Below are positions 2,108 through 18,438 of a stretch of DNA of 40,170 bases, in pieces. Numbering within the stretch: position 1 is the stretch's first letter; each line of letters opens with the position of its first letter. Source of the stretch: a virus; the IMG/VR virus record IMGVR_UViG_3300045988_166694, positions 1-40,170 of that record, one strand, 5' to 3'. The position numbers were made by a program, and so were the translations under genes. The notes under the pieces are model-generated. The model was not told the origin of the DNA. It worked only from the letters and a program-made list of their open reading frames with translations, and did not search any database.

Positions 2108-4285
2108 ATGGCTATAGCGTGCTATGATAGCCATAATATGAACGATAATCAGCAGCCACTTTTTCATGACCCCTCAGTAGACGTCATTACTGACCAGACA
2201 GACGTCGTAGACGAACAGGCTGTCTTAAAGCTGGATATAGACGATAGACAACTCATCTCTAACTTTAGACGCTGGATTGATGGCAGCAAAGATTACTGGA
2301 ATAACACGGACGGCTATAATCTAGAGAACGTGCGCAATCAGAACGAGCGATATTATTTGGGCAAGCAGATAGACAAGACGTTGCTTTATCCTCATCAAGT
2401 GCCGTATCAGGAGAATATTATCTTTACCGACGTGCAAGCTATCATGGCTTACGTCACTGCCTCAGAGCCTTCATGTGAGGTAGTACCTGACAATGATAAA
2501 ACTCAGTCGATGGTTATGGCTGAAGACTTGGAGCGGGCTATTAATATCCATACTGAACGTCACAAGTTGGCTGAGAAGATAAAGTCTGCCGTCAAGAACA
2601 TGTATCTGAAGCGAGTCGGCATTATTAAGCTGATGTGGGACGAAAAGTCGAATGATATCAAGCCTGTCGCTGTTGACCCTGCCAGGGTGATTTTGGATAA
2701 GAACTGTCTCTTATGTGAAGAGCCGCGGTTTATTTGCGAGGTGTGTCTGAAGAGTGTGGGCGAATTGGTGAAGCAATTCCCTGATAAGAAAGATGCACTG
2801 CTCAAAGCCTTGGGTAGAGAACGATGGAGCCAAAAGCTATTTAACGAGATGATAGCTTATAACGAGATATGGTTTACTGACGATACGGCTGATTATGGCG
2901 AGCAGGAGTGTGTAGCTTGGTATTACAAGGACGTCGTCTTTGACAAAATGAAAAACCCGAATTATCTCTATGACGGTGAGGGCGTGGCTGTCAATAACTT
3001 CTTAGACAGACCGACAAAACCGTATATCTTCTTTAACTATATCAATGACGGCTCATCACTAATTGACCAGACCACCCCGCTTGAGCAGGTTATACCATTA
3101 CAAGACGTTTTGAATAAGCGAGGGCGACAGATTGTCGAAAATGCCGATACGGCTAACTCTATCCTGGTTTTTAAGGCTGGGGCAATCAAGCAGGAGACGG
3201 CGGAGAATATTACCCGTGACCCTAACCAGAAGATATTGCTGGAGACAGCACCTGAACAGCCTGTCAGCAGTGCCTATGGGGAGATAGAACCACACCTGTT
3301 GCCTAATTACGTCATAAACGATAAACAGGATATCAAGAATGCTATCCACGATATTTTAGGTGCGCCAAGCCAGTTCAGGGGTAGTGATAGTGACAACAAT
3401 GTGAACACTCTAGGTGAGGCTCAGATGATTAAGTCTCAAGCTAGTGGTAGGCAGGACGAGATTGTACGAGCTATCGAGATGAGCCTGGATAGCTACTTTA
3501 AGTTACTGGTGCAGATGATGAAAGTTTACTATGACGAAAAGCACCCCTTTGCCACCAGAGATACTGATGGTAAGTTTGTCTACACCGAGCTATCCAGAGC
3601 TACCATGCCCGATATTGCCTCTATCTCTATCTCTCATGGCTCATTACTCAAGGTAGACCGTGAGAGACGAGAGAATGTAGCTATGGCGATGGCTAAGATG
3701 GGGCTAATTGACCCGTACAACTTGTTCAAAGACCTATCGCTACATGACGCCGATAAACGTTATGAAGCTTTAGTCAAGTTCAAGGTAGACCCGACCAGCC
3801 TGGTTAGCGATGTCAAGACCGAGGTGGACAACCGTGAAGCTTATATCGACTTTGTCACCATTATGGGCGGCAATAATGCCGAGCCACGTCAAGATATCGA
3901 ACCAGGCTATATCTTAGCTATGCGTAAGTTACTGATGACTGACCAATTCTTGTATGCTAAGCCTGACCGACAGAAGAAGCTACTGGACTACATCCAAGGT
4001 TGCGTGATTGACCTGGGTAACCGAGTGAGACTAGAGCAGGCTGACCAGGCTGGATTACTGGTAGACCCGAGTATACCGATTACCCCTGAAGCACCTGAAG
4101 TACCGCCAGAGATGATGACTCAACAACAACCCCAGCCACCGATGCCGCCTGACCAAGCCCAGCCCGAACAACCACCTATCCAGAATATGCCCGCTGTACC
4201 CAACCAAGAAGCCCCTGTATCTATCCAGGACGCAGGTATACCTCAAGACGCCATTAGTACACTAGGTGGATTGCTAGGAGGCTAG
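2108..4285 (+). CDS. Portal protein (725 aa) with a Pro/Gln-rich C-terminal tail.
   Basis: Size and position directly after terL. The C-terminus is the low-complexity segment PQPPMPPDQAQPEQPP. Confidence 0.55.
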   Translation: MAIACYDSHNMNDNQQPLFHDPSVDVITDQTDVVDEQAVLKLDIDDRQLISNFRRWIDGSKDYWNNTDGYNLENVRNQNERYYLGKQIDKTLLYPHQVPYQENIIFTDVQAIMAYVTASEPSCEVVPDNDKTQSMVMAEDLERAINIHTERHKLAEKIKSAVKNMYLKRVGIIKLMWDEKSNDIKPVAVDPARVILDKNCLLCEEPRFICEVCLKSVGELVKQFPDKKDALLKALGRERWSQKLFNEMIAYNEIWFTDDTADYGEQECVAWYYKDVVFDKMKNPNYLYDGEGVAVNNFLDRPTKPYIFFNYINDGSSLIDQTTPLEQVIPLQDVLNKRGRQIVENADTANSILVFKAGAIKQETAENITRDPNQKILLETAPEQPVSSAYGEIEPHLLPNYVINDKQDIKNAIHDILGAPSQFRGSDSDNNVNTLGEAQMIKSQASGRQDEIVRAIEMSLDSYFKLLVQMMKVYYDEKHPFATRDTDGKFVYTELSRATMPDIASISISHGSLLKVDRERRENVAMAMAKMGLIDPYNLFKDLSLHDADKRYEALVKFKVDPTSLVSDVKTEVDNREAYIDFVTIMGGNNAEPRQDIEPGYILAMRKLLMTDQFLYAKPDRQKKLLDYIQGCVIDLGNRVRLEQADQAGLLVDPSIPITPEAPEVPPEMMTQQQPQPPMPPDQAQPEQPPIQNMPAVPNQEAPVSIQDAGIPQDAISTLGGLLGG

Positions 4286-4286
4286 A

Positions 4287-4555
4287 ATGAGCGTCTTAAG
4301 CAGTTTATTTAAGAGATTGCTCAAGGGTAGAGGCGATGATATCGCTGAAAAGGTAGCGCAGAGGTTATGGATAATTTGGGCAAGCTGGGCGTCAAGAATA
4401 TCCAACCCTACAACGTTGATGAAGGTATCCAATCCTACCTTGGCAACATGGCTAAGAAAGGACGACGGCTTGTCAATCCATACGTGCTTGGACTAGGTGG
4501 AGCGGGCGTCTTATCCAGTTTGTTCAGTGGTCAAAATGGCTCAGATAACGCATAG
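4287..4555 (+). CDS. Small virion-associated protein, apparently frameshifted. The first 26 codons (frame of 4287) carry the conserved N-terminal motif MSVLSSLFKRLLKGRGDDIAEKVAQR. The protein-like continuation is in the -1 frame from about 4349 to 4555.
   Basis: A good ribosome-binding site 'AGGAGG' precedes 4287. After about residue 27 the frame-0 product becomes W-rich and non-protein-like, while the 4349-4555 frame reads as a normal protein. The N-terminus is homologous to the N-termini of the 13956..15785 and 12197..13954 products. Confidence 0.35.
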
Positions 4556-4608
4556 TGACATAAACAACATTTTAAGATAGACTAAAATTGTAATAAGAAA
4601 GGAGATAG

Positions 4609-5694
4609 ATGAGCGATATCGCCGATATCTTAGAGAGTGCTTTGGCTAACGATGAGTCATCCGAACAGCCCGATACTGGGCAGGATAATCAGCCAGAACA
4701 GCCAGAGCAAGAGACTCAGGACGAGGGGCAATCAGATACCAACCAAGACGAAGCTCAGTCTGAAGCTAATCAGGAAGAGTCTCAGAATGATGAGGCTGAC
4801 CAAGAGCAACCCGACCAAGAGCAGGAGGATGAGCAAGGGGGCGAAGGCGAACAAAAAGATGAGCAACCCGAGCCTGAACAGCCTCAGGAAAAACAAGAAC
4901 CCGAAGCCCCGAAAAAGCAAGACCAACCGCAGTCAATCAGTGACGAGATGTTGCGAGCTGAGCTTGAACGACGGGGTATGGTGGCTACCAAAAAGCAAGA
5001 CCAACCTCAGCCCGAAGACCCACGTTTTAGTCAACCAAGAGAGCTACCTGACGCCGTGTGGTCAAAGATGACCGAAGAGGGTAAGTATATCTATAATCAG
5101 CTACCTTATCTGACAATTAGAGGTAAGGACGGTGTTCTTAGGATTAAGTCTGACGAGCAGATACCACCTGACTTTGAGTGGGCTGATGAGGCGGAGAAGA
5201 CGCAATTCTACTCTAAGGAGCTACCGGCTCAAGTTTATCGAGCAGAACAACTCAACGCTCAGGTGACCAAAGCGGTCGAGGATTACAATCGAGAGCTGGA
5301 ACGGCAACGTGAGGCTCAGACGATAGTGCGGGGCGTCGAGAAGCTACAGGCTAGTGGTATTTTGCCTAAAATACCTGGTGAGCGTGGTAGTAAAGAGTAC
5401 GAGGGGTCGGCAGAGCTGGCTTACGTAAACAACGTGCTTGGCTTATGGGAACAGCATCATCGTCAAGGTGAGAATATCTCTATCGAGACCGCAGCCTATC
5501 TATACAAGGCTCAGCACCCCGATGCATTGAAGCCCAAGCCGGCCACCACCCCGACAGACAAGATGCGTAAGGCTAAGTCAAGCAATATCAACGGCGGAGC
5601 AAAGGGTAAAGCTATGCCTGAACAGAGGCACACTTTTCCACCGGGGACAATGCCGAGCGACATAATAGATTACTATCTGGATGATTTTGAATAA
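4609..5694 (+). CDS. Acidic, Gln/Glu-rich protein (361 aa). Scaffolding protein candidate.
   Basis: Ribosome-binding site 'AAAGGAGA'. Extremely acidic low-complexity N-terminal third followed by a charged helical region. Located after the portal gene. Confidence 0.4.
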   Translation: MSDIADILESALANDESSEQPDTGQDNQPEQPEQETQDEGQSDTNQDEAQSEANQEESQNDEADQEQPDQEQEDEQGGEGEQKDEQPEPEQPQEKQEPEAPKKQDQPQSISDEMLRAELERRGMVATKKQDQPQPEDPRFSQPRELPDAVWSKMTEEGKYIYNQLPYLTIRGKDGVLRIKSDEQIPPDFEWADEAEKTQFYSKELPAQVYRAEQLNAQVTKAVEDYNRELERQREAQTIVRGVEKLQASGILPKIPGERGSKEYEGSAELAYVNNVLGLWEQHHRQGENISIETAAYLYKAQHPDALKPKPATTPTDKMRKAKSSNINGGAKGKAMPEQRHTFPPGTMPSDIIDYYLDDFE

Positions 5695-5703
5695 AGGAGG
5701 AAT

Positions 5704-6348
5704 ATGGCAGAAAACACCAGCAATGCAGACCAGAGCGACAATTTAGAAGATACGCTGACTCAAGACCTTGACTCAAGCACTAGGGGGACTGAAGTAGCCT
5801 CATCTCAATCGATGCGTGAGATTTTGCGAGGTATGTTTGAACCGAGTGATTACGTTAAGCTAACCAACCCATTCAAGTATTCTATGGGATGGGTATACGC
5901 TAATCCTGCCAAGCAACCTAAGTCGGAGCAGACATCGGGTGCAGGCAAGCGTGTTTATCACGGCGTACAGGACAAGAAGATACTCAAGCCTGGCGAGAGT
6001 ACCGCAGTAACAGGCGGAGAGGCTTATGTGGCTATCGAGCGAATGTATAAGCGTTACGTACAGATAGATGGTGACGTGGTCATCATGTTCAACAACCCCG
6101 AGTTTATGCGTGAGTTCATCCCCCGTGTCTACAAGGGCAAGGTCGATGTGGCAGAGCTAATCGATATGATAGACAACAAGCATCAACCAGCCCCCGTCGA
6201 GGTTAAGACCGAGGACTTGGCGCAGATGCGTGAGAATATTGCTGACGATATCGACAATCTAGGTTTTGCTGATGAGGATGAACCTGAGGCACCTAAAGAG
6301 ATAAAGTTTAAGAAGCCTGTCGGAAGACCGCCCAAAAACAGTAAGTAG
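5704..6348 (+). CDS. Hypothetical head-associated protein (214 aa).
   Basis: Ribosome-binding site 'AAAGGAGGAAT' 4 nt before the ATG. No recognisable motifs. Confidence 0.5.
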   Translation: MAENTSNADQSDNLEDTLTQDLDSSTRGTEVASSQSMREILRGMFEPSDYVKLTNPFKYSMGWVYANPAKQPKSEQTSGAGKRVYHGVQDKKILKPGESTAVTGGEAYVAIERMYKRYVQIDGDVVIMFNNPEFMREFIPRVYKGKVDVAELIDMIDNKHQPAPVEVKTEDLAQMRENIADDIDNLGFADEDEPEAPKEIKFKKPVGRPPKNSK

Positions 6349-6364
6349 TTGCTAAAATGAGGGT

Positions 6365-6697
6365 ATGGATGAAGTTAGTCGGCAGATTGGAGAACTTAGA
6401 GGACGTCTAGACACCTTTGAGCGTGACCTGTCTAAGGAACTTGGGGAGCATGCTCAGAGCCTAGACCATATACAAGCCTCAGTCACTCAGATAGAAACCA
6501 GATTAGCCGTTAAAGATAACTCACTAATCGGTAAACTATCGCAAGTACTGGAAAACTCACTAATTAAGATTGTCGGAGCAGGCTTTGTGACAGTGATACT
6601 GATATCTATCACTAATCACTACCAAAGCCAGCTGGATGAGCTTAAAGCACAAGTAACTAAGACCATGACGGTGGTCAAGGAGAGGGAAATAAAATAA
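6365..6697 (+). CDS. Coiled-coil protein with a C-terminal transmembrane helix (110 aa). Possibly a lysis-associated membrane protein.
   Basis: Hydrophobic segment 'IVGAGFVTVILISI'. Lies immediately upstream of the endolysin. Confidence 0.45.
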   Translation: MDEVSRQIGELRGRLDTFERDLSKELGEHAQSLDHIQASVTQIETRLAVKDNSLIGKLSQVLENSLIKIVGAGFVTVILISITNHYQSQLDELKAQVTKTMTVVKEREIK

Positions 6698-6777
6698 TGG
6701 ACATTAGACCTGGAGAATTAGAGGTAGCTATCCCCGTAGACCCCGAGGAACTGGAAGCTATGGGCAAGGGGGAGTAG

Positions 6778-7833
6778 ATGGCGTACTTTGAACAGAAGTG
6801 GCTATCACCCAACCACACTATCGGCAGGGATGGAGCTACTATAGATAAGATTGTCTTGCATCACGCTGCTACAACCAGTTTTGCGGGTATCGGAGCAACT
6901 TTTCAGAATAGGAACATTGCCACCAGTGCCCACTATGGCGTATCACCCGGGCAAGTCTGTCAATATGTCGAGCCTCAGAATACGGCTTGGGCGGTAGGTA
7001 ACTGGGAGCAGAACAAGCGTTCAATCAGTATCGAGTTTGTCAACTCTACTGGCGCACCGAGCTGGGATATTGCCCGAGAGACTTTAGATACTGGAGCAGA
7101 GCTGGTAGCTAATATCGCTAAGTACCTGGGCTGGCGTGGGCTAAAGATAGGTGAGAATGTCTTCTATCACAGTGACTTTTTCCCGACGGCTTGCCCGGGC
7201 GTGCTTAAGAGTACATCGAGAGGACAATATGTAGTAGATAAGGCTAACGCTATCATAAATGGCGGTACTTTTACCGCACCAGAGCAATCAAAAGTGCCAG
7301 TGCCTAGATTAGCCAGTCAATCCCTTAATCCTGGTATGTGGCTATATCATGACTATAATGGTAATTGGCGCAATAAGCCGTCTCTAACGGGCGAAATAAT
7401 GGCTACCTACCCTGCTAACACCTGGGTCAAGATGAAAGGCTATGTGCATGGCGAGGCGGTCGATGGTGACGATAGGTGGCTGGTGTCAGACGTTCATGGC
7501 TGGTTTGCTCATGTCTCTATCTTTGGTGGTGTCTATCTACTGCCTGATTTAGGTAAGGTCAATCCTGATGAAGCTAAACCGTCGGGAGCTCATACGCTGG
7601 TTGAACAGCACGCCACCTTTAAGGCTACCGATACAATGAACATTAGGCGTGACCCGTCTGTCGGGGCTGGTGCTGTCGTAGGCACGTTAGCACCCGGTGA
7701 GACGGTCAACTATGAAGGTTATATTGATATCAACGGCTATCGCTGGATTAGCTATAGAGGTAACTCAGGTATGAGGTGCTATATCGCTAGACGCAATCTA
7801 TCGACCGGTGAGATTTATGGAGAATGTTATTAA
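6778..7833 (+). CDS. Endolysin: N-acetylmuramoyl-L-alanine amidase (Amidase_2/PGRP fold) with a C-terminal SH3-like cell-wall-binding region.
   Basis: N-terminal region 'DKIVLHHAATTSF...AHYGV...SISIEFVN' matches the Amidase_2 fold. The C-terminus contains 'YRWISYRGNSGMRCYIARRN'. Ribosome-binding site 'AAGGGGGAG'. Confidence 0.85.
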   Translation: MAYFEQKWLSPNHTIGRDGATIDKIVLHHAATTSFAGIGATFQNRNIATSAHYGVSPGQVCQYVEPQNTAWAVGNWEQNKRSISIEFVNSTGAPSWDIARETLDTGAELVANIAKYLGWRGLKIGENVFYHSDFFPTACPGVLKSTSRGQYVVDKANAIINGGTFTAPEQSKVPVPRLASQSLNPGMWLYHDYNGNWRNKPSLTGEIMATYPANTWVKMKGYVHGEAVDGDDRWLVSDVHGWFAHVSIFGGVYLLPDLGKVNPDEAKPSGAHTLVEQHATFKATDTMNIRRDPSVGAGAVVGTLAPGETVNYEGYIDINGYRWISYRGNSGMRCYIARRNLSTGEIYGECY

Positions 7834-7844
7834 AAGGAGGAACT

Positions 7845-8072
7845 ATGAATAACTTAGAATTAGACAATAAGACTTATGACCGATTGAAGCTAGCGGTACA
7901 GGTAATCTTACCTGCCCTGCTAACCTGCTACACCACTATCGCTGTAGCTTTAGGGCTACCTGCTACTGAAGTGGTCACTATCATCGCAGGAGCGGTCATT
8001 ACCTGCCTGGGCACAATTTTGGGTATCAGCTCAAAGAACTATGAAAAGAACAAGATGGACAATAACGCCTAA
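7845..8072 (+). CDS. Holin (75 aa, two transmembrane helices). The start is moved to the ATG at 7845, which follows 'AAAGGAGG'.
   Basis: Two hydrophobic helices, 'VILPALLTCYTTIAVALGL' and 'VVTIIAGAVITCLGTILGI', and a charged C-terminus. Adjacent to the endolysin. Confidence 0.7.
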   Translation: MNNLELDNKTYDRLKLAVQVILPALLTCYTTIAVALGLPATEVVTIIAGAVITCLGTILGISSKNYEKNKMDNNA

Positions 8073-8499
8073 AGCCCCTTTTGCTTGGACTGCCCTGTTC
8101 AGAGACGGTCACGCTATTGAACAGGGCGGTAGTGATGAGGAGGCACTAAACCGATTAGTCTGGTATCTACATGGTGACCCTCACGAGTTCACCAGACGTT
8201 CACACTACCTTATCTGGTTTAAGCTGTACGACAAAGACAACACCGATATGCTCACCGTCAATTTTGACCCCGATGGAGATGCTTATATATCCCTTATCGG
8301 TGGTCATTTTATTATGACCGAACACAAGATGCGGTCGGCCGAGTTACTCTATCGGATTATGTACGATAAGTTATTCATCGGTTTTGGTGGACTAAACAGT
8401 TTAGGCAAGCTGGACGCTAAGGTGATAGTCGTCAATCCTAACACCTCTATCAAGCAGGCACGCACGGCGACGCTATTATATGATAAGCTTAAGGTATGA
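8041..8499 (+). CDS. Hypothetical protein (152 aa), paralogue of the 9002..9487 product.
   Basis: Shared N-terminal pattern W-x-A-(L/I)-F-x-DG-x-x-I-x-Q ('FAWTALFRDGHAIEQ' versus 'YKWQAIFSDGTRITQ'). Overlaps the holin stop by 32 nt. Confidence 0.5.
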   Translation: MKRTRWTITPKAPFAWTALFRDGHAIEQGGSDEEALNRLVWYLHGDPHEFTRRSHYLIWFKLYDKDNTDMLTVNFDPDGDAYISLIGGHFIMTEHKMRSAELLYRIMYDKLFIGFGGLNSLGKLDAKVIVVNPNTSIKQARTATLLYDKLKV

Positions 8500-9017
8500 C
8501 AGCAATCGCACAATGGCAAGAAGACAACGGAACTGCCACGGGAAGCCCGGCTAAAGGTGCTACCCGCAATAACACTAATAACGTCAACTGGAAGTCAGTT
8601 GACGATACTACAACGTCAACTGCTAACGCTACTATCTTAGCGGGGACTAACAGTTACCCTAAGTACACCTTTGTTAAGTTCACGGGTACCTTCAATCAGT
8701 TATCTATGGGCAGGTTTGCTCACACAGGTGGCTCAGTCAGCCCTAACACTAAGTTGGTTGGGCTAGTTACTAGCACCTACACTACACCGACCAGAGGGGC
8801 TTTGGCGGGAGCTAAAGACTTAAGCAACCCTGTATCTCTGGATAACGGTGAGCCGGTCAAGTTTGCACCGGCAGGACCGGAAGGGACGGCTGTAGGAGAC
8901 AGACTAACGATGGCTGGCTACACCCAGTACATGGTTACTCAGTTACAGACCACCGGTAGTGCTCAGCCCGGTGATACACCTGAACTAACATTAGCCTTTA
9001 GGTGGAACGAGAACTAG
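8496..9017 (+). CDS. Thr/Ser/Asn-rich hypothetical protein (173 aa).
   Basis: ATGA start/stop overlap with the upstream gene, which suggests translational coupling. Coding-like composition. Confidence 0.5.
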   Translation: MTAIAQWQEDNGTATGSPAKGATRNNTNNVNWKSVDDTTTSTANATILAGTNSYPKYTFVKFTGTFNQLSMGRFAHTGGSVSPNTKLVGLVTSTYTTPTRGALAGAKDLSNPVSLDNGEPVKFAPAGPEGTAVGDRLTMAGYTQYMVTQLQTTGSAQPGDTPELTLAFRWNEN

Positions 9018-9487
9018 TGATGACGGACGGACAACGATATAAATGGCAAGCCATCTTTAGTGATGGTACACGCATTACTCAACCCGATGACGACCATTAC
9101 TCTAAGTATGACCCAGCCAAAGAGTACAACCCGTCTGCTTTTAGGGACGTAGAAGATAAGCGTGAGAAGACGCCATTGGTGGCTTTTGTCTTGCAAGACA
9201 TTACCGATGATAGTCAAGCCGTTTTGTTAGACCTGGAAGCCCGTATCTTCTATGTCAACAACATGCCCCTTAAGTTAGCAGGCGATGAACAGTTTATTTA
9301 TGACATTAACTGTAAGCCTGCCGAGCTCATCTACTACCGCACTATGGAGCAGAAGATGGAAGACGGCTCAAAACCAGTAGTCAAGAGTCACACAATCGGC
9401 TACAGATACAACGATGTGTCATACGTGATTGTCATACCTGATGCGCCATATTTAGATATTGTGAAGGATGACAAGAAAAATGAGTGA
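9002..9487 (+). CDS. Hypothetical protein (161 aa), paralogue of the 8041..8499 product. The track start is a GTG; an in-frame ATG lies about 18 nt downstream.
   Basis: Paralogy to 8041..8499 as described for that gene. Confidence 0.5.
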   Translation: MERELVMTDGQRYKWQAIFSDGTRITQPDDDHYSKYDPAKEYNPSAFRDVEDKREKTPLVAFVLQDITDDSQAVLLDLEARIFYVNNMPLKLAGDEQFIYDINCKPAELIYYRTMEQKMEDGSKPVVKSHTIGYRYNDVSYVIVIPDAPYLDIVKDDKKNE

Positions 9488-9746
9488 ATATCGAGCTACT
9501 ACAACTGGTTATCTGGATGGTGTAATAATTACAAAATAGCTTGTAGTTAGATAGCTGTCTTGATACTATATTGGTGTAGCATATTAGGTTTTTGGTTGAT
9601 TTTACTAGTATGCTTTGTACTTTCACCACACACAATCTTTCTCGTAAGCGGGTTTTCTCTTAATCTTTTCCCGCTTGCGGGTCATTACCTGTCGTTAGAG
9701 TGGTCTTTTGACTGGTTTATCCCACTCTTACGATGCATGTTGCGAA

Positions 9747-9780
9747 GACGCCTAGCTCACCCCAGGCGTCTTTTTTGTTT
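9747..9780 (+). terminator. Rho-independent terminator: a 7-bp GC-rich stem (GACGCCT...AGGCGTC) followed by TTTTTTGTTT.
   Basis: Read directly from the sequence. Terminates plus-strand transcription before the 9801 gene. Confidence 0.7.
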
Positions 9781-9800
9781 ACTGGTAAGATAGTAATAAG

Positions 9801-10994
9801 ATGAATGAATATTTTACTGATTTTTCTAATGAGCCACCGGGCAATATCCCTAGAGATAACCCTAACTGGATAGTAGACCAAGACCCGGGCAATCATATCG
9901 CTTTTGCCCCTGACCAACATGGCTGTATCTGGATTAAGGCAGACAATAAAGGTCAAGTCTTTATCCGTTGTCGGCAGTATGAGCCTGGCGCATCAGTAGT
10001 TGAGTCACTCACCCGTGTTATCGTCTGGACTAGTAATCAAAATGTAGGTAGCTATGGTATCTTAGGACACCGCTACAATAGGTCAGCCCCACAAGGATTG
10101 ACGCTAGGCTATATCCCTAGCTATGGACGCTTGTCGTTGTTTCTAAATGACGATACCCGTAATGAGGGAATAGCTTATTACCACTACAATTGGTCACTAA
10201 GCACGCCTTACTGGGTGAGGTTCAGGTCGGATAATAACCGCCAGTACGCTAAGATATGGCGTGACGGCGAGGCTGAGCCGGCTAACTGGCAGATAGATGC
10301 TGTACGTAAGTTCGGTGATAATAGTGGTGAGATTGGTTTAGTTAACTACACAGGTCGCCCCGGCGAGGTCGGTGTGACCTACACCCAGTATTCATTTGCC
10401 ACGGGCGGTGCCAGTGCACCTAGGGCGCAAAACGCTATCGCCATCCAGGGCTCAGCTAGGATAGAGCGGGCTGACATTGATGTAATTAGAGGTAAGGCGG
10501 TCATAAATAAGAACATGTCTACTCAGATAAAGGGTAGGGCAGATATTCTTAAACCAGTCACCGCATCGATTGTCGGCAAGTCCAAGATTGTTACAGGCGT
10601 AAACAAGGATATTCAGCTTAGAGGCAAAGCTAGACTAAACAAGTATCAGACTAAGCAGATTGGCGGTAGGTCGGTCGTCAGCGTCTTTGTTAAACAGGCA
10701 TTTATCAAGGGCGGGGCTAGGATACATATCCAACCGTCTCTCATACTGCTTGGTAGTGCCGTCGTTGCTAATGAAGCGACTATTACGATAAAGGGTGCAT
10801 CTCGGATATATGGCGTGTTTACGGCGTCTCTGAAGGGCAAGTCTGTTTTAAGACGCCCACCACGACCAATGTCGCCTCAGCACTGGCGTAACGCTGATAC
10901 GCACTCACCGACCAAGTGGCAAGGTGCAACTACTAAGCCTCAGCACTGGCGTAACGCTGATACGCACTCACCGACCAAGTGGCAAGAACAATAA
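9801..10994 (+). CDS. Putative receptor-binding or tail-fibre protein (397 aa) with about nine β-solenoid-like 'hxG(K/R)A(R/D)I' repeats and a C-terminal tandem duplication.
   Basis: Repeats IQGSARIE, IRGKAVIN, IKGRADIL, IVGKSKIV, LRGKARLN, IGGRSVVS, IKGGARIH, IKGASRIY and LKGKSVLR. The C-terminus carries the peptide PQHWRNADTHSPTKWQ twice. Confidence 0.45.
   Translation: MNEYFTDFSNEPPGNIPRDNPNWIVDQDPGNHIAFAPDQHGCIWIKADNKGQVFIRCRQYEPGASVVESLTRVIVWTSNQNVGSYGILGHRYNRSAPQGLTLGYIPSYGRLSLFLNDDTRNEGIAYYHYNWSLSTPYWVRFRSDNNRQYAKIWRDGEAEPANWQIDAVRKFGDNSGEIGLVNYTGRPGEVGVTYTQYSFATGGASAPRAQNAIAIQGSARIERADIDVIRGKAVINKNMSTQIKGRADILKPVTASIVGKSKIVTGVNKDIQLRGKARLNKYQTKQIGGRSVVSVFVKQAFIKGGARIHIQPSLILLGSAVVANEATITIKGASRIYGVFTASLKGKSVLRRPPRPMSPQHWRNADTHSPTKWQGATTKPQHWRNADTHSPTKWQEQ
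10875..10986 (+). repeat. Perfect tandem duplication of a 49-bp unit with a 63-bp period (CCTCAGCACTGGCGTAACGCTGATACGCACTCACCGACCAAGTGGCAAG, two copies) at the 3' end of the 9801..10994 gene.
   Basis: Two identical copies at about 10875-10923 and 10938-10986. Confidence 0.85.
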
Positions 10995-11026
10995 AAAACC
11001 ACCCCGTAAGAGGTGGCTTTTTAGTT
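10995..11026. terminator. Bidirectional rho-independent terminator between the convergent late operons (AAAAAACCACCCCGTAAGAGGTGGCTTTTT).
   Basis: A stem CCACC/GGTGG flanked by an A-run upstream and a T-run downstream. It lies between the stop at 10994 (plus strand) and the stop at 11040 (minus strand). Confidence 0.75.
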
Positions 11027-11039
11027 GTGGCAGGTCGCC

Positions 11040-12131
11040 CTAGGCTATTGACTTAATACCTGTAATCACACTGTTGCGTCGTGGCTGTCGGTGGATTAGG
11101 TTACCAAGCATCACTAACCAACCAATCTTACCGTACTGGTTGATAGGCTGCATGAAGTCACGCATCTGCAAGAACGACGGTACTTGGTCTTTAATATCTG
11201 AATATGTACCCTCAGTTATGTTGTTCTTGTTGTTGTAGTTGTTCAGGTCTTGACCCTTTAGATTGCGGTACTCCAGGTAGTGCTCGTTAATCCAGTAGAA
11301 CCGACCGTTCGGGCACTTGTCATCAGCCACTACAGGCTTACCGCGGTAGCTGATAGCATCGACACCCCAAGCACCTTTCAGAGACTGAGCAGGTACGCTA
11401 GTGCCACGTGGGGTCTTGCCATTCACACGGTTGTAGCCGGTAATGGCTGTAGCGTCATAGTGCGCCTGCAAGCTGTTGTTTTTGTGCAACAAGCTTTCAA
11501 ACAGACTCCAGATCTGAGAAGTGGTGAAGGCAATGTCAGGTGACTCTTGCGATGAGCCCGCCGCTGAAGCGTCGTCAAACGCCTTGGAGACAAGGTCGAG
11601 AGTCATCTTGCCGGCTGCCGCTGCGGTGACGTGACCGTTGATATTCGGCAGTTCAGCACGACTTAAGCCTGCATAAGAAGAGGTAGCAGTACCGTCGTCG
11701 ACAATAAGCCCCAATCCATCAAAGTCTTTACCGTTACCATAACCATATAACAGGTTGCCGACACCATCAGACAGAGAGTTCGCCGCCTCGTCCATCTTTG
11801 CACCAAGCAAGCGTACAGCTCCCTTATTGGCGGTCTCGTTGACAGACTGCTCGATACCAGGGATAACGATACTCTGCTCATAACCCTTGACATACCAAGT
11901 CATGCTGCGCACGTTGTTAGTGGCTGAGGTGTCAAACTCATCCATACCGTCAAATGAGCCACCGGTTGTTGAGTTAGCAATCTGGATAGGCTGATTGACA
12001 GTAGTACCTCGCCACGGCTTAGGGTTAGATAACGCCCTGGCGGTAAAGATGTTGCTCTGATTGACCGTATCCACAATCGACGGCAATATCTCGTTGTAGG
12101 TAATTGTCTTAACTCGTTCAGAAAATGTCAT
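11040..12131 (-). CDS. Putative major capsid protein (363 aa).
   Basis: Size typical of HK97-fold capsid proteins. Last gene of the structural operon with a strong ribosome-binding site 'AAGGAGAAG'. No other capsid-sized candidate was found. Homology was not verifiable. Confidence 0.45.
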   Translation of the reverse strand: MTFSERVKTITYNEILPSIVDTVNQSNIFTARALSNPKPWRGTTVNQPIQIANSTTGGSFDGMDEFDTSATNNVRSMTWYVKGYEQSIVIPGIEQSVNETANKGAVRLLGAKMDEAANSLSDGVGNLLYGYGNGKDFDGLGLIVDDGTATSSYAGLSRAELPNINGHVTAAAAGKMTLDLVSKAFDDASAAGSSQESPDIAFTTSQIWSLFESLLHKNNSLQAHYDATAITGYNRVNGKTPRGTSVPAQSLKGAWGVDAISYRGKPVVADDKCPNGRFYWINEHYLEYRNLKGQDLNNYNNKNNITEGTYSDIKDQVPSFLQMRDFMQPINQYGKIGWLVMLGNLIHRQPRRNSVITGIKSIA

Positions 12132-12196
12132 TTCTTCTCCTTGCTTATCTTATAGGGTGAATATACCACAGATATTCGCCCAAACTGTGACCGTTT

Positions 12197-13954
12197 TTAG
12201 TTATTGTCTTTTTGCTTTTGATTGATAGTTCTAGTTAGCCCCATTGTCAAAATGTTGTATGGTGTAGACTTGCGCCAGTTTTTCACAAAATCCAACAGCT
12301 CCTGATTGCTCATCTTTTTTAATTGAGCGACATCAGGTAGGTTATCTACAGCTGTTTTAAGGGCTAGTGCCTCTGTTCTCTTTGGCTTAATCACCTGAGG
12401 CTTTGACCGTGTAAGCATATGGTTAGGCAGTTCTTGGATATCGCTTTCCTTAACTTGGGGCAGGTAGTGCCGTACCTGCTCGATTATCTCGGCTGGTTCG
12501 GGTGTCAAATTGTGCACAGGCACGTTGCCTCTGTCCCAGTACTGGTTAATCTCCATAACTGGTACTTGGTGTGTGCCATTCTCGCTATCTGTCTGCGCAC
12601 GGGCACGTTTCTGAGGCTTTGGCTTGCTAATTGTGTTGTTGACCGTCTTTGGTTCTAAATCGCCAAATAAGCCAGCCTGGTTGTCTGATACGGGTATGGC
12701 TTCAGCCAGCTTCTCTTCGTCAATCTGAGGTGGCAGACTACCAAAGGTGGGGGTTGGGGCTTGTTTAGCAGAGCTGGCAACCCTATCATTATATCGACTG
12801 AGTATCTCATCTTGGATATTCTTAAGCTTGTCCTCCAGCTTAGCCGTCTGGTTACCGAGGGCGGTTACTACCTCGTCAGACATATCGTCAAGTCCCTGAA
12901 CCTTTTTGATAGCATTCATTTTAGACTTAATATCCCCCGATATGTTTTCAAAATCAGATAGCAAGTCAACCGCATCGATAGCTCGCCCTACATCATCACC
13001 AAACAGGGTAGATTGAGCGTCTTTTATCTTAAGGCTCTTCAGCTTGCCTGTCATCAGATTGACCACGTTATCCACGTTCTTCTTAGATAGCTTGTCGGCG
13101 TTGTATAGTCCTTCCACCACGCTCATAAACTTGTCTTGGCTCATGCCCCGATTGCGGGCGTTACGTGAGGTAGCTATCAGAGTATCCGGGCTAAAATCCA
13201 TGTTCTCGTTAATTACAGATTGCATCTTCGGGTTGTGTTCGATAGCGTCCCAGGCATAGCTGTAATCGTCAAAATCAGTGCCACGCTTAATGTTGTTGCG
13301 CTCGACTTGTGGCTCTAACCCCGACCGTTTACTCTCGGCAATCGACTTTGCCATGTCCAGCGTGCTCTCATATTGACCTCCCTGGTTAGCTCCACGGCTT
13401 ATCTGCTTAGCTTCGTCATCTGTTATATCCTGATAAATCCTAGCCTTGATAGACTCGGGATTATCTAGCCCCGCCTTAGCTCGTTGCTCCAGCCCCATAG
13501 TTCTAGAGTGTCCACCTAACACCTGAAAATCATCGCCCACCTTACGCACTACAATCGGCTGGTCAACCATCCCCTCCTGGTAACCTTTCTCAAAGACACT
13601 CTTAGTAGTACCCGCTCCACTGGCGGTGGTTCTTGGCTGGTACTCTTTCAGCCTCACCAGTTTACTAACGGGCACGTCTCCTTCTGAGAAGGCTAGCCCC
13701 AGGCGGTCGGTTAAGCTATCTGCCAACTTGCCGGCATTATCATCAGCATGTTTACTGAGGTAATTGCCGGCTTTGCTTAGTAGGTCATCCAGGTCGTTAT
13801 CGGCAACCTTCTTGACGGCTCTGGTCGCTCGCTTGGCAACGCCACCCAGTAAATCATCCAAGTGATTAGTGGCTGTTTTGCCTATACTTCGGGCAGCGAC
13901 ATCAGCTAAATTGCCAGCTCCAGAGAACAGCTTCGATAATACGCTGTTTAGCAT
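12197..13954 (-). CDS. Virion protein (585 aa) that carries an internal ParB/Srx-fold (ParB N-terminal nuclease/CTPase-like) domain and the shared N-terminal 'MLNSVLSKLF' motif.
   Basis: 'VPVSKLVRLKEYQPR' resembles the ParB 'IPIxKIxPNPYQPR' motif. 'QPIVVRKVGDDFQVLGGHSRTMG' resembles ParB 'QPIVVRP..G.YEIVAGERRWRA'. The N-terminus is homologous to those of the 13956..15785 and 4287 products. Confidence 0.6.
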   Translation of the reverse strand: MLNSVLSKLFSGAGNLADVAARSIGKTATNHLDDLLGGVAKRATRAVKKVADNDLDDLLSKAGNYLSKHADDNAGKLADSLTDRLGLAFSEGDVPVSKLVRLKEYQPRTTASGAGTTKSVFEKGYQEGMVDQPIVVRKVGDDFQVLGGHSRTMGLEQRAKAGLDNPESIKARIYQDITDDEAKQISRGANQGGQYESTLDMAKSIAESKRSGLEPQVERNNIKRGTDFDDYSYAWDAIEHNPKMQSVINENMDFSPDTLIATSRNARNRGMSQDKFMSVVEGLYNADKLSKKNVDNVVNLMTGKLKSLKIKDAQSTLFGDDVGRAIDAVDLLSDFENISGDIKSKMNAIKKVQGLDDMSDEVVTALGNQTAKLEDKLKNIQDEILSRYNDRVASSAKQAPTPTFGSLPPQIDEEKLAEAIPVSDNQAGLFGDLEPKTVNNTISKPKPQKRARAQTDSENGTHQVPVMEINQYWDRGNVPVHNLTPEPAEIIEQVRHYLPQVKESDIQELPNHMLTRSKPQVIKPKRTEALALKTAVDNLPDVAQLKKMSNQELLDFVKNWRKSTPYNILTMGLTRTINQKQKDNN

Positions 13955-13955
13955 T

Positions 13956-15785
13956 CTATTGCCCCAGCATGTTATAGATTGACTGTATCTTAAGTCTAGC
14001 TTTCACCGGATTATCGGCGATATCGGGCACCATTGACATGTATGACTTGATATCCATATCAGACAGTGTGCCGCTATCGCCACTGGCTCTAGCCAAGGCT
14101 ACGGCTAAAGCTTGACGCTGAGAGTTGTATGCTCCTGCCGCCGGGTTGACGCTGTCAGCGGTAATGGCATTGAGGGCATTAGTTAAGTGCCCACCTACAC
14201 CATGACCGCCACCGGCTTGTCGGTACAGTTTCATCAAGCTACTCATCTGAGTGCGGGCAGAGTTCTGCTTAGCTGCCGTTTTCGCATCAGCGGCACTGCT
14301 TTTGGCGGTTGAGGCTTTAGTGGCGGCTTTAGTTCTGCTATCCAGTAAATCGATAATACTAGCTATTGACTTACCCGCTTTGGTATTACCATCCATCAGT
14401 GCCTTGACATAAGCGTTCTCCAAGTCTTCTCTAGAATAGCCAGCAATGGTGTCATTGCTCGCTGAATTAGCAGCAGCTAACCCGTTAGATACATCTCTTG
14501 GGCTACCGGCAACGCCGCCCATAGCCGAGCCCATTCCGTCAGCTTCTGAGCCACCGCCGGGCATACTACTACCTCTAGCCTGTCTACCGCCCAACTGGTC
14601 ACCCAGCATGGATAGTGCTCCAATACCACCCGCTGCGACTGCGCCTCGCTTGATAGCCTTCTGTACGCCCTCATCTCTAAGCTTATCGGCAGCACCTACT
14701 AAGGTTGACCCAAGCTTGCCTGTCGCCGCTTGAGCCGGCGTACCGACTAAGGTGTCCAGTAAATTAGTCAAGCCCTTAGGCATACCACCCATACCACGAC
14801 CACCACCTGAGTTGCCCAGTAAAGCACCACCGCCCTGAGCCTGGTCAGATAATCGCTCCAGCTTCTCACCGTTGACAAAGTCACGCTTAAATGAGCGCAA
14901 GTTAGCAATAGTCCTCTCTGCTGCCGGGGTGGCTTCCAGTTCCTGAGCCAGCTTATCGTAAGCTTTCATGAAAGGTGTATTGTTCTGTAACCTAGCCTCA
15001 CCAGCCAGTCTTTTGAGCTCATTGATAGAGTTCTCGTACAGTTCTTGAGTAGCACCCGGTCTAACCTGTTCTACGGCGTTATCAATACCTGTAGCAATCT
15101 TGTCGCCCATGTCCATCATCAATCCGCCCAAGGTCTTATCACCAGCCTTGTTAGCTGTATACATCAGCCTGCTACCCTCACTCTTGAGTAACTTCTCCAT
15201 CTGTACAGGGGTGTAATGGTCAATTAGCGGTCGTAAGTTAGACGGAAAACTGTTCAATACCGCTTCGTATTCACGGGTAGGTAAGTCAAAATGAGTCATA
15301 TCCAGTACATCAGTAGCCGACCTGGTGCTATTGATTGCTTTGTCCAAAATAGCATCTTCAGTACCAGTCAATGTCCGTCCCAGCTCTGCCTGAGCCCCCG
15401 GGTCTGAGATACCTGTCCGTCTGAATACTTCAGCAATGTTGTGCTTAGCGTCCGGGGCAACTTTAGCCATACCGGCTCTTGTAACGCTTCTGCCCGTGTT
15501 CATTGCCGTCTCGCCGCTCTTCTCCAGTAAATCAGCCACTGAGTTCAGAAAACCGCCTTTTTTGACTACGCTCTGAGCAGTATCATCAGCTATCTCACGC
15601 CCCAGATTAGATAAGGCACTCTTGCCTAAGCCCCTAGAGGCACTGGCTACTGCGACATTAGCTAAATCGTCGCCATAGTTTCTAGCTAGGCTACTTGCTA
15701 ACCCCCTAGAGGCACTATTAGCAACGCCTCGGGCAATATCATCGCCTGAGCTTCTGAACAATTTACTTAAAATACTGCCAAACAT
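13956..15785 (-). CDS. Large Ala/Gly-rich virion protein (609 aa) with the shared N-terminal 'MFGSILSKLFRSSGDDIA' motif. Internal or ejection protein candidate.
   Basis: N-terminal homology to the 12197..13954 and 4287 products. Low-complexity Gly/Ala/Ser-rich core. Position in the structural operon. Confidence 0.55.
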   Translation of the reverse strand: MFGSILSKLFRSSGDDIARGVANSASRGLASSLARNYGDDLANVAVASASRGLGKSALSNLGREIADDTAQSVVKKGGFLNSVADLLEKSGETAMNTGRSVTRAGMAKVAPDAKHNIAEVFRRTGISDPGAQAELGRTLTGTEDAILDKAINSTRSATDVLDMTHFDLPTREYEAVLNSFPSNLRPLIDHYTPVQMEKLLKSEGSRLMYTANKAGDKTLGGLMMDMGDKIATGIDNAVEQVRPGATQELYENSINELKRLAGEARLQNNTPFMKAYDKLAQELEATPAAERTIANLRSFKRDFVNGEKLERLSDQAQGGGALLGNSGGGRGMGGMPKGLTNLLDTLVGTPAQAATGKLGSTLVGAADKLRDEGVQKAIKRGAVAAGGIGALSMLGDQLGGRQARGSSMPGGGSEADGMGSAMGGVAGSPRDVSNGLAAANSASNDTIAGYSREDLENAYVKALMDGNTKAGKSIASIIDLLDSRTKAATKASTAKSSAADAKTAAKQNSARTQMSSLMKLYRQAGGGHGVGGHLTNALNAITADSVNPAAGAYNSQRQALAVALARASGDSGTLSDMDIKSYMSMVPDIADNPVKARLKIQSIYNMLGQ

Positions 15786-16639
15786 TAGTAGTAGCCTCCT
15801 CCATATTCATCTTCATCATCTTGGTACTGGTCTTGATACTGGTTCTGTCCGCCACCGCCAAATAACGGCAATAATTTACTGCCACCATATAAAGCACCGC
15901 CACCTAAAGCTACCTTGCCCATAGTAGACTTGGGCAGATACTTACGCCAATCAGTGCCTGTTAGCTTATTTTTTAGACTGCCAAACTTTTCAAATCCGAT
16001 AGGCATAGCTGCGCCCATTACTGCGCCCATAGGTGCGCCACTTAAGGCGTCACTGAGCTTAGTGTTTTGACCACCTTCACGATAGGCACCAGCTACGCTA
16101 CTCGCTGCACCCGAGAGGGCGTTTCTAACCAGTGCGCCTCTGCTAATCTTGCCTGCTGAAGTTAAGGCTTTGACGCCTGATGCCCCAGGTATGATGTTCA
16201 TGAGGCTCTCGACACCAGCTCCAATATCTGAGACGGGGTCACGATTGTTCTGCTTGTAGGTATTGCCCATCAAATCGACCGCCGCTGTACCAGCCTGATA
16301 CATCGGATTGATGATACCGCCGATTATCCCGTTACCAAGAGGCTTGTATCGCCAGTCTTTCTCCTCTTGCTCATAAGCCTTGCCCAGCGTATCCAATCCG
16401 CTCTTGTTTTGGCTTCGGGCAGTGTTGTAAGAGTTCATGATAGCTGAACGTCTAGCCTGCTCATCGGGGCTAAGACTGCCCCAATCGACGCCCTCGATAT
16501 TTTTAGCGTAATAGTCATTAGCTTGCTGGTTCAAAGCATTAGCTTGGTCTATCTGCTTATTGACCGTATCACGGTCATATTGCCGACCTGTACCAAAAAG
16601 TAACTTGCCTAAATTACCCAAGATATCCATGTCTACCAA
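15785..16639 (-). CDS. Gly-rich virion protein (284 aa) that ends in 'YGGGYY'.
   Basis: ATGA start/stop overlap with the flanking genes. Gly-rich composition. Confidence 0.5.
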   Translation of the reverse strand: MVDMDILGNLGKLLFGTGRQYDRDTVNKQIDQANALNQQANDYYAKNIEGVDWGSLSPDEQARRSAIMNSYNTARSQNKSGLDTLGKAYEQEEKDWRYKPLGNGIIGGIINPMYQAGTAAVDLMGNTYKQNNRDPVSDIGAGVESLMNIIPGASGVKALTSAGKISRGALVRNALSGAASSVAGAYREGGQNTKLSDALSGAPMGAVMGAAMPIGFEKFGSLKNKLTGTDWRKYLPKSTMGKVALGGGALYGGSKLLPLFGGGGQNQYQDQYQDDEDEYGGGYY

Positions 16640-17568: not shown

Positions 17569-17610
17569 CTAAACTCCTATTCTTAGGATTATCGTAACAC
17601 AGTAGCCTCG

Positions 17611-18438
17611 TTAATATGCCCCCGCATAAGCACCACCTTCGTATCTTCTGAAGTATTCAGCTAGCGATAGCTCACCAGATTGTGTCTTAGCAATATCTGA
17701 ACGCTTGCGGGCAGTAGCTAAGTCAGCGTTACGCTGCCGTTCGGCACTAGCTCTCGCCAGGCTGAGTTCTGTATTTATCTGGTTTTGATAACGCTTAGTC
17801 CTATTAGCCTCTATCTCTCGCTCCTGAGCCATCCAGCGTTGTCTAATATTCCACCAATCATAGGCACTCTGAACCGACTGTTGCTGATATCTCGCTTGAG
17901 TAGCCATATTCGACCACTGCTCCTCGTTCTTGACTGCTGTATTCCAGTCATCAGCTCGCCTCTTGATACCTGACCAGTAGCTATCGCTCTGCTTGTTAGT
18001 TAGCCCTAACGCCTGATTGAAAGCTTTCTCGACCCTAGAATGATAATCGTTGAACTTGGTCTGGTAGCTAGCCTCATACTGCTTAAATTGGCTGGTGAGG
18101 GCTTCTTCTTGAGGTTCTTTGACCCGCTCCAGTTCTTCTTCGGTAAGGTTGCCACCAAAACGTTGAACAATAGTAGTACTGAGCCTATCTAGCTGGTCTT
18201 TAACTACCGCCAGTGCCTCCTTAGACTTGTCTAGAGTAGTTTTAACGCCTGATACGTCTAAGTCTTTCTCTGATTGACGCTTGTACTGGTCATATATTGT
18301 CTGGTAGTCGGGACGTTGGTCAAAAGCAATATCGTAAGCCTGCTTGGCTTGCTTGGTCTGCTCTTGCGCGGCACCGTATGCACCGTAAGTCTGGTCTACA
18401 TATTGTTGGGCTTCTTGTAGACGTCTTTGCCAATCCAT
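17611..18438 (-). CDS. Gln-rich coiled-coil virion protein (275 aa), paralogue of the 16633..17568 product.
   Basis: Paralogy to 16633..17568 as described for that gene. Confidence 0.55.
   Translation of the reverse strand: MDWQRRLQEAQQYVDQTYGAYGAAQEQTKQAKQAYDIAFDQRPDYQTIYDQYKRQSEKDLDVSGVKTTLDKSKEALAVVKDQLDRLSTTIVQRFGGNLTEEELERVKEPQEEALTSQFKQYEASYQTKFNDYHSRVEKAFNQALGLTNKQSDSYWSGIKRRADDWNTAVKNEEQWSNMATQARYQQQSVQSAYDWWNIRQRWMAQEREIEANRTKRYQNQINTELSLARASAERQRNADLATARKRSDIAKTQSGELSLAEYFRRYEGGAYAGAY

Follow-up and report, generated by a model that had tools for sequence, protein, structure and literature searches.

A Shared N-Terminal Leader on Proteins with Unrelated Bodies

The 40,170-nucleotide (nt) stretch of DNA analyzed here as a whole, hereafter the window (positions 1 to 40,170 of the IMG/VR record IMGVR_UViG_3300045988_166694), is a near-complete genome, of about 40 kb, of a short-tailed phage (podophage). 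In this genome, a common N-terminal leader stands at the start of a 609-amino-acid (aa) internal protein, hereafter the core protein, at the start of a 585-aa accessory protein encoded beside it, and at the start of the remnant of a third gene located directly after the portal gene. This leader is probably a packaging and injection signal, by which the proteins bearing it would be loaded into the virion. Computation establishes that its copies are homologous and conserved, that it has spread as a module over different bodies, that the genes bearing it occupy fixed positions, that the cargo genes among them are of accessory nature, and that core and cargo proteins switch leader type jointly.

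The three N-termini quoted in the preliminary description of this DNA were all found exactly as given, namely MSVLSSLFKRLLKGRGDDIAEKVAQ at 4287 (+), MFGSILSKLFRSSGDDIARGVANS at 15785 (−) for the 609-aa protein, and MLNSVLSKLFSGAGNLADVAARS at 13954 (−) for the 585-aa protein. Translation of the window in all six frames yields the strict motif [IV]LS[KS]LF at four places only: three are residues 4-10 of an open reading frame (ORF), and the remaining one is the copy GAGVLSSLFSGQNG (4499-4540). A hidden Markov model (HMM) of the leader, made from the first 45 residues of 609-aa protein orthologues and from nothing else, was run against the 316 ORFs of the window. It matches the 585-aa protein with an E-value of 6.9e-5 and the 4287 ORF with one of 2e-4, each alignment beginning at residue 1 and at profile position 1. 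Besides, the first 50 residues of the 609-aa and 585-aa proteins align with an E-value of 1.8e-6, and comparison of the bodies of these two proteins and of the intact 431-aa post-portal protein of relatives gave no BLASTP match better than E 4.7. The proposal that homologous N-termini are carried by unrelated bodies is thereby borne out, and the similarity is real, far beyond chance. The three copies use different synonymous codons, which indicates that the constraint acts on the protein and not on a DNA repeat, and a DNA repeat or gene conversion is ruled out as the source of the similarity. Some points of the preliminary description have to be amended: of its three proteins, the 609-aa and 585-aa ones stand, whereas the gene at 4287 is a deletion remnant, and the 25-residue leader exists but belongs to a module of about 40-80 aa that includes NYGDD-type repeats.

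The Core Protein and the Makeup of Its Leader

The core gene (13956..15785, −) encodes an all-alpha internal protein, presumably of the ejection type, and sits in an operon of adaptor, nozzle, and internal protein genes. Its leader module, residues 1-49 (15639..15785, −), is made of the helix MFGSILSKLF, then of the repeats GDDIAR and NYGDDLAN. Among 127 homologues, recovered down to 29% identity, the N-terminus is kept in all full-length ones, and in 39 homologues (down to 23% identity) M1, L6, and L9 never vary and the DD of the repeats hardly ever does. The variants found in these homologues (MFGxΦLSKLF, MFGGLSKLF, MSILSTLFGNYGDD, MGFLSALLGNYGDD) can be written as the consensus of a helix M-x-x-(x)-Φ-L-S-x-L-Φ followed by 1-4 repeats (N)YGDDΦxR, in these homologues of the form (N)YGDDΦ(A/L)R. 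The helix is short and amphipathic (hydrophobic moment 0.4-0.6), with a hydrophobic run of about 7 residues after which acidic residues follow. In the AlphaFold2 (AF2) model of the 609-aa protein, whose mean predicted local distance difference test (pLDDT) score is 56.5, residues 1-77 are helical with a pLDDT below 50.

The NYGDD repeat has no Pfam family; a summed match to Bacteriocin_IIi (6.3e-8, without any single significant stretch) was discarded. In addition, 11-residue repeats of the (K)NYGDDVA(R/K)G type form long tandem arrays in other proteins (P0168, P0169, P0177, P0204, P0208, P0232, and L078:1682-2566), which begin with an N-terminus that, judged by eye, is hydrophobic and signal-peptide-like; one of them, P0168, adjoins a Ser/Thr kinase gene on an apparently cellular contig. 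One lineage (L039-L057) has a core protein of 680-712 aa with an internal second copy of the leader (…ARSAGSGVLNNLMRNEADDIAA…), and no separate cargo gene was detected in it.

Distribution of the Leader in Related Phages

A set of 75 related loci, comprising 15,675 ORFs, was scanned at a cut-off of E<0.01 with a profile derived from the 609 family alone. The profile matches only the core gene, the 1-3 genes directly downstream of it, and the post-portal gene, every match being located at the true N-terminus, and a second-round profile brought no additional matches among the 15,675 ORFs. The distance from the core gene to the start of a leader gene ranges from −1 to 533 nt; the other position of leader genes immediately follows the portal gene. 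A global search with the leader profile among 1.84 billion cluster representatives returned 70 clusters at E<=1e-3, 42 of which match exactly at residue 1, and the bodies found in these clusters are PBECR5, ART-PolyVal, Zeta, or ParB again.

The leader thus tops at least five unrelated bodies of types typical of injected effectors, and it is retained down to about 23-30% identity. These bodies comprise PBECR5 (the 431-aa protein of relatives, E 1.7e-14, and a 442-aa protein of L037), the ADP-ribosyltransferase (ART) domain ART-PolyVal (350 aa, L037; E 4.4e-14), Zeta_toxin (551 aa, L061; E 9e-10), ART joined to Zeta (797 aa, L063), and leader, ART, and ParB in one protein (P0155). The PBECR5, ART-PolyVal, and Zeta_toxin scores exceed the Pfam cut-offs; weak RelA_SpoT (716 aa, L069) and weak GNAT (337 aa, L028) bodies were also detected, and several leader-bearing bodies are without assignment. 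The preliminary description had made its proposal depend on conservation of the motif in homologues, which was found, and had advised searching related phages for the leader on other cargo, a search that led to the ADP-ribosyltransferase, Zeta-kinase, PBECR5, and ParB bodies.

The cargo genes are accessory and evolve rapidly: genomes whose major capsid protein (MCP) and core protein are 96-99% identical differ in the presence of the ParB gene. Of eleven genomes that are nearly identical, six carry the RNase (PBECR5) gene alone, three carry it together with the ParB gene, and two (the window and L008) have a ParB gene and a deleted RNase gene. Between the core and MCP genes is a slot that holds the ParB gene in the window and a 93-aa leader protein in a related phage from a dolphin, and in other lineages a 56-aa leader-only protein, 1-3 different effectors, or nothing.

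A leader-like protein of 255 aa (MANLNTLKGLFSKL..ANYGDDVARAVVNYGDD..) was also noticed on a different phage-like contig (L081:68-7259), directly upstream of a 2123-aa gene without Pfam domain, and the module may therefore extend beyond the phage group of the window.

The ParB/Srx Cargo Protein

The accessory cargo gene of the window (12197..13954, −) is separated from the core gene by a 1-nt spacer and is translationally coupled to it. Its 585-aa product combines a leader with a body of ParB/Srx fold. The leader module, residues 1-45 (13820..13954, −), starts with MLNSVLSKLF, after which (N)xLDDLL repeats run to about residue 78, and all 29 homologues of the protein start with MFGGVLSKLL..ADDVARAVGKTAT, M1, L6, and L9 being nearly invariant. 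The ParB/Srx-like domain, residues ~80-310 (13025..13717, −), was delimited by AF2, Foldseek, and the ParB box. In the AF2 model, residues 80-310 reach a pLDDT of 72-92, and residues 1-53 are helical with a pLDDT below 50. The low-confidence helices predicted at the leaders of both the 609-aa and 585-aa proteins would fit a flexible segment that folds on a partner.

Searched with Foldseek against the PDB, the 585-aa model matches ParB (6sdk_A; E 4.8e-8, probability 1.0) as well as Noc and KorB. The ParB box reads QPxLVRKxGDxYEVLGGHSR, in which LGGHSR, containing the GxxR arginine motif, is invariant; Pfam ParB_N is sub-threshold by itself (E 0.048). On these modelled grounds the body has the ParB N-domain fold and belongs to the ParB/Srx superfamily, which makes the protein a predicted nuclease or NTPase. 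This is its one recognisable domain, the C-terminal half being without assignment.

A Deleted PBECR5 Gene after the Portal Gene

The locus that follows the portal gene was first read as an intact gene at 4287. It is a remnant that has undergone a 1027-nt deletion compared to the allele of the relative L004. The remnant begins 2 nt past the end of the portal gene with a 25-codon leader (4287..4361, +), for which the intact allele reads MSVLSSLFKRLLKGRGDDIAEKVAQNYGDDAIRIAT...; BLASTN and a base-by-base comparison place the junction at 4362..4363 (+), the absent nucleotides being gene positions 77-1103. Since 1027 is not a multiple of three, the leader is no longer in frame with what follows it: the 3' end of the deleted gene, 62 codons long, is stranded in another frame (4367..4555, +). 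It contains the C-terminal motif copy GAGVLSSLFSGQNG (4499..4540, +), which the preliminary description had noted near the end of the frame continuing from 4287: the deletion explains its presence there, and its frame is the other one (4367-4555).

Ten close IMG/VR relatives have an MCP 98-99% identical to that of the window, and in eight of them a single ORF of 429-431 aa lies directly after the portal gene. This intact ORF reads MSVLSSLFKRLLKGRGDDIAEKVAQNYGDDAIRIAT...PYVLGLGGAGVLSSLFSGQNGSDNA, the motif being present at both ends, and the 431-aa protein contains a PBECR5 domain above the Pfam cut-off, which makes it a predicted phage RNase. The possibility that the two small ORFs of the window are joined through programmed −1 frameshifting, with A_AAG (4348-4352) as the site, was considered and rejected, since the relatives have this one continuous ORF and the window lacks 1027 nt of it.

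Three independent deletion alleles of the PBECR5 gene are at hand. In L008 (IMGVR_UViG_3300045988_154683; 17200-17640, −), the post-portal gene is reduced to a 17-codon ORF, MSVLSSLFSGQNGSDNA, the two motif copies, N- and C-terminal, having recombined with each other; their DNA agrees at about 16 of 20 positions. The second, P0216, is a 61-aa remnant with a junction differing from that of the window, which is the third. The junction of the window was not found in the 75 related loci or in IMG/VR, and contigs encoding an identical 609-aa protein stop before the region; its deletion may be a real variant or an assembly artefact, and two other deletion alleles exist.

C-Terminal Copies and Look-Alikes

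A Gly-rich hydrophobic copy of the motif ends many of the cargo proteins (L002-L011, L036-L038, P0233-P0251), though not the 585-aa protein. In the PBECR5 family this C-terminus, ...PYVLGLGG..G(V/I)L(S/G)xΦ(F/L)(S/G)G.., is kept down to 35% identity. Examples from the cargo proteins at large are ...GAGVLSSLFSGQNGSDNA and, in cargos other than this family, ...GGGSILGSLLGGGNDNNQRRA and ...GSILNGLLG, to which ...LGLGGAGVLSSLFSG and ...GGGSILGSLLGGG can be added.

Three further likenesses were discarded as leader copies. Those of the 284-aa protein at its N-terminus (MDILGNLGKLLFG) and of the adaptor (E 0.009) either lack significance or are not kept by orthologues, and the likeness of the portal C-terminus is not significant and is absent in L012. 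The 284-aa protein (15785-16639, −), whose gene lies upstream of the core gene, starts with (MVD)MDILGNLGKLLFGTG and shows GGGALYGGSKLLPLFGGGG towards its C-terminus; the orthologues start with MFDWLFG..., so that this N-terminus is distinct from the leader. The C-terminal sequence of the portal is ...AISTLGGLLGG (4253-4285) and that of the dolphin phage portal (L001) ...GSVMSNLLPM, with a faint likeness to Φ-L-x-x-L-L-G.

Joint Switching of the Leader Type and Candidate Partners

Distant lineages are without the NYGDD type, and in them the core protein and the product of the next gene still share a lineage-specific N-terminus: the core and cargo leaders are MSMLNSLIKASGKSL and MMLTLNSLIKASASSL in L060 (in short form MSMLNSLIKAS and MMLTLNSLIKAS), and MAVTNAIIKAGEKALTKGSEKAIEKA and MGIENALIKVGEQALSKGGTKALQKA in L071. 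When cargo leaders are compared with core leaders, 14 of 16 find their best match in one of their own type, and the cargo's own core has a mean rank of 2.9 among 13 cores compared to 7 expected by chance, in a set of lineages that are not independent and with leader types defined after the sequences were seen.

MCP identity amounts to 75-78% across lineages with different leader types and to 48-56% between some of those sharing the NYGDD type. The capsid protein was thus rejected as a co-evolving receptor, its divergence not following the leader type, and this argues weakly against the capsid shell as the receptor of the leader while favoring the N-terminal region of the core protein or another internal partner. 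No clean signal came from profiles of the upstream internal proteins.

Proposed Function of the Leader

In the scheme proposed here, the N-terminal 40-80 residues would be a portable docking module, native to the 609-aa core protein, from which accessory effector genes would have acquired their copies. By binding one internal partner common to all these proteins while the procapsid assembles, the module would bring core protein and effectors into the head; this partner could be the portal, the scaffold, or the N-terminal region of the core protein itself, and less likely the capsid shell. Core protein and effectors would then be expelled into the cell together with the DNA, and the injected ParB-type enzyme (RNase, ART, or Zeta kinase in relatives) may act on host nucleic acids or defence before phage gene expression. 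In the window, the loaded effector would be the ParB/Srx-type protein, a second effector, the predicted PBECR5 RNase, having presumably been lost by deletion. Removal of the leader by a protease, as put forward in the preliminary description, is not predicted, since no prohead protease was detected in the ~45 ORFs of the window scanned with Pfam or PHROGs; besides, the sequences behind the leader share no cleavage motif that is kept from one family to the next.

A more specific reading, which is tentative and less likely than not, is that of an addressing code readable from sequence. A bipartite tag, composed of an N-terminal Φ-L-x-x-L-Φ helix with NYGDD 11-residue repeats and often of a C-terminal Φ-L-x-x-L-Φ-G copy, would load interchangeable toxin or anti-defence enzymes through like-with-like association with the N-terminal region of the core protein and not through binding to the capsid shell, and whole lineages would switch the code in core and cargo together.

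Several other explanations of the shared N-terminus have to be weighed. The module could act only after ejection, by threading proteins through the portal and tail channel or by anchoring them at the host envelope or entry conduit, in which case the proteins would still be virion proteins, loaded by some other feature. An 11-residue period is known from lipid-binding amphipathic repeats, the helix is short and amphipathic, and the Gly-rich hydrophobic C-terminal copies such as ...LGLGGAGVLSSLFSG and ...GGGSILGSLLGGG resemble membrane-active segments. However, the ART, RNase, Zeta kinase, and ParB enzymes are soluble and need no membrane anchor, the repeats are acidic (DD) with a hydrophobic stretch of only about 7 residues, and the matching of leader type to the core protein of the same genome would be left unexplained, which renders a purely post-ejection role rather unlikely. 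The leader might also be the footprint of cassette exchange, bodies having recombined behind a 5' segment of the core gene without any targeting function: the cargo slot, immediately downstream of the core gene, is hypervariable, and in L008 recombination between the N- and C-terminal copies precisely removed a body, leaving MSVLSSLFSGQNGSDNA. Yet leaders of the same genome differ at most synonymous sites and have about 33% of residues in common over the N-terminal 45, so that they appear old and maintained by selection on the protein; in addition, M1, L6, and L9 are kept across families at 23-40% identity, and the post-portal cargo gene lies about 10 kb from the core gene on the opposite strand. 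Such a footprint is therefore improbable as the full explanation, the more so as polymorphic toxins evolve likewise and their conserved N-terminal part is nevertheless a trafficking domain (PMC5576092, PMC12226406).

That the leader would be a cytoplasmic tag on proteins that are not packaged, serving recognition by the Cpn60 chaperonin, regulated turnover, or homo-oligomerisation, is very improbable. This phage and its relatives do encode a Cpn60-family chaperonin (25192-26646), and the leader region is predicted to be flexible; on the other side, we know of no such tag for phage chaperonins, and the genes are located inside a late structural operon to which they are translationally coupled. 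Moreover, the bodies are domain types of injected effectors (PMC5512222). A secretion signal of the Sec, Tat, or lipoprotein kind is barely credible: although the leader is N-terminal and partly hydrophobic, its hydrophobic run of ~7 residues falls short of the ~12 needed for an h-region, acidic repeats come directly after it, and inspection reveals neither a positively charged n-region, nor an A-x-A site, nor a lipobox Cys.

The packaging signal therefore remains the preferred reading, and the comparative tests are all consistent with the claim of the preliminary description that the leader defines the set of packaged and injected proteins. Several points nevertheless weigh against it. We infer packaging, injection, the identity of the partner, and the very status of leader-bearing proteins as virion components from sequence, and for the partner of the module there are candidates only. 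The 609-aa protein has no recognisable fold (no PDB match by Foldseek at E below 0.6, with a poor AF2 model as query), so that its status as an ejection protein is derived from synteny. Besides, NYGDD arrays in signal-peptide-like proteins, at least one of them in a cellular context, indicate that the repeat is not unique to virions, and in some lineages the leader is present on the core protein only. Finally, no isolated member of the phage group was found, and the host assignment comes from the record of a single related metagenomic phage.

Genome Context and Nearest Relatives

The closest annotated relative of the window is the TM7 phage DolZOral124_53_65, whose MCP is 65% identical and whose counterpart of the 609-aa protein is 30% identical. 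This relationship places the phage in a group whose one annotated member, a metagenomic phage, is assigned to a Saccharibacteria (TM7) host by its record.

The plus strand carries an SU10-like portal gene (2108..4285, +; Pfam SU10_portal 6.3e-11, phrog_156 1.5e-22), which the terminase gene (456-2096) precedes and the gene of an acidic scaffold-like protein (4609-5694) follows. Further on are an Amidase_2/SH3_5 endolysin (6778-7833, +) and a Dp-1 holin (7824-8072). In the endolysin, Amidase_2 is joined to an SH3_5 wall-binding domain, an architecture typical for phages of Gram-positive-type walls. A long minus-strand operon is headed by the SU10-type adaptor (22995-23873, −) and continues with a 671-aa protein in the nozzle position, six internal proteins of 299, 461, 275, 311, 284, and 609 aa, the 585-aa gene, and the MCP gene (11040..12131, −; phrog_9953 4.3e-71). 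Within it, the adjacent 311-aa (16633-17568, −) and 275-aa (17611-18438, −) proteins are paralogues which both match phrog_37153 and begin MDF/MDW..R(I/L), the pair being duplicated in the dolphin TM7 phage too.

Other genes of the window are of interest in their own right. The Cpn60/TCP-1 family chaperonin (25192-26646, −; E 6.3e-27) is kept in the relatives L013-L016 and L076 and in the dolphin phage. Recombination functions are represented by a RecT recombinase (E 9.5e-40) paired with a YqaJ exonuclease (30395-32282, +), and a T4 Rnl1-type RNA ligase (E 1.1e-17) followed by a polynucleotide kinase-phosphatase (HAD_PNKP, E 9.7e-53; together 36365-38229, +) forms the pair of classic tRNA-repair counter-defence. 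Finally, a 397-aa protein (9801-10994, +) has a C-terminal direct repeat PQHWRNADTHSPTKWQ(G/E) in two copies, preceded by many short GxAxI-type segments.

Significance

If the leader is a loading signal, one short profile would identify the proteins injected by these uncultured phages, among them ADP-ribosyltransferases, RNases, Zeta kinases, and ParB-type nucleases. Saccharibacteria (TM7) are an episymbiotic group in which phage-host conflict is almost unstudied. The system would also provide a consensus-bearing example of capsid targeting in a podovirus without detectable prohead protease, and the leader a candidate protein-delivery tag for engineering. Effector turnover is directly visible in the population: near-identical genomes differ in whether they have the ParB gene, and among them the RNase gene has been deleted in three independent ways. 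Should the addressing code prove true, these phages would have an equivalent of the 'specialised effector' principle known from type VI secretion and polymorphic toxins, and the injected proteome of uncultured phages of the candidate phyla radiation (CPR) would become predictable from sequence.

Comparison with Known Systems

Of the two analogies drawn in the preliminary description, the capsid-targeting sequence (CTS) of T4 fits better than the ejection proteins of P22, which are not known to share a leader; the P1 DarB signal and the MuF-domain toxins are further good analogies. Another likeness is offered by encapsulins, in which short terminal peptides address diverse enzymes to the inside of an HK97-fold shell by binding the shell protein; the sequences are unrelated to the leader of the window, whose type does not track MCP divergence.

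In T4, the CTS is a short N-terminal peptide common to unrelated proteins (IPI-III, Alt), which sends them into the prohead for injection, the cargo including an ADP-ribosyltransferase and anti-defence proteins (PMC5512222, PMC9024508). A short N-terminus shared by unrelated proteins is likewise found here, at residue 1, and a location inside the head is presumed. The T4 CTS is about 10 aa long and is cut off by the prohead protease gp21, whereas the leader of the window has no sequence similarity to it, spans 40-80 aa with repeats, and is accompanied by no protease gene that could be found. Besides, T4 is a myovirus and the phage of the window a podovirus, in which the tag is also present on a conserved core internal protein.

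For P1, the first 30 residues of DarB suffice to load a reporter into the head (PMC9024508), and this phage also packages a ParB-domain protein, DdrB (PMC9024508, PMC5512222). While the P1 Dar proteins are without common consensus (PMC9024508), leaders of the type described here have a clear consensus over all cargos, which makes the cargo set predictable. SU10 has five ejection proteins in the head that are released at infection (PMC9509320). The SU10 (Kuravirus) proteins gp20-24 resemble those of the window by gene order, the portal and adaptor being related and the internal-protein block coming after the adaptor and nozzle (PMC9509320); no mention of a leader shared by the SU10 ejection proteins was found in the SU10 paper (PMC9509320).

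The PBECR, ART, RelA/SpoT, Zeta, and ParB domains are known as effectors of 'polyvalent proteins', which travel inside the phage head or are passed on along with DNA (Iyer et al. 2017, PMC5512222), as exemplified by the ParB domain of P1 DdrB, the ART of T4 Alt, and PBECR domains fused to MuF or portal proteins (PMC5512222). Effector domains of this set were found among the virion genes here (PBECR5, ART-PolyVal, and Zeta_toxin, with ParB at the level of the ParB/Srx fold). In the window, the effectors are separate small genes instead of one giant multidomain protein as in the polyvalent proteins, and two- and three-part fusions occur in relatives (the 797-aa ART and Zeta protein of L063, and leader, ART, and ParB in P0155).

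MuF/SPP1 gp7 toxins and polyvalent proteins combine a constant trafficking part with interchangeable effectors encoded beside portal or virion genes, as is the case here (PMC5512222, PMC5576092). The MuF/gp7 head protein is classically encoded right behind the portal gene, and a variable effector gene directly after the portal gene is present in the relatives (the 431-aa PBECR5 protein, 2 nt after the portal), the window keeping a remnant of it. The constant part differs, being a short peptide-repeat module here and a folded domain in MuF; no MuF (Phage_Mu_F) domain was matched in the 431-, 585-, or 609-aa proteins, and no MuF-fused homologues of the PBECR5 body were recovered. Because no sequence similarity, MuF domain, or protease was found, and because the module is built of repeats and the tag is shared with a conserved structural protein, the system is a member of none of these known families: functionally, it resembles the T4 CTS and the P1 DarB signal, and evolutionarily, the MuF toxins.

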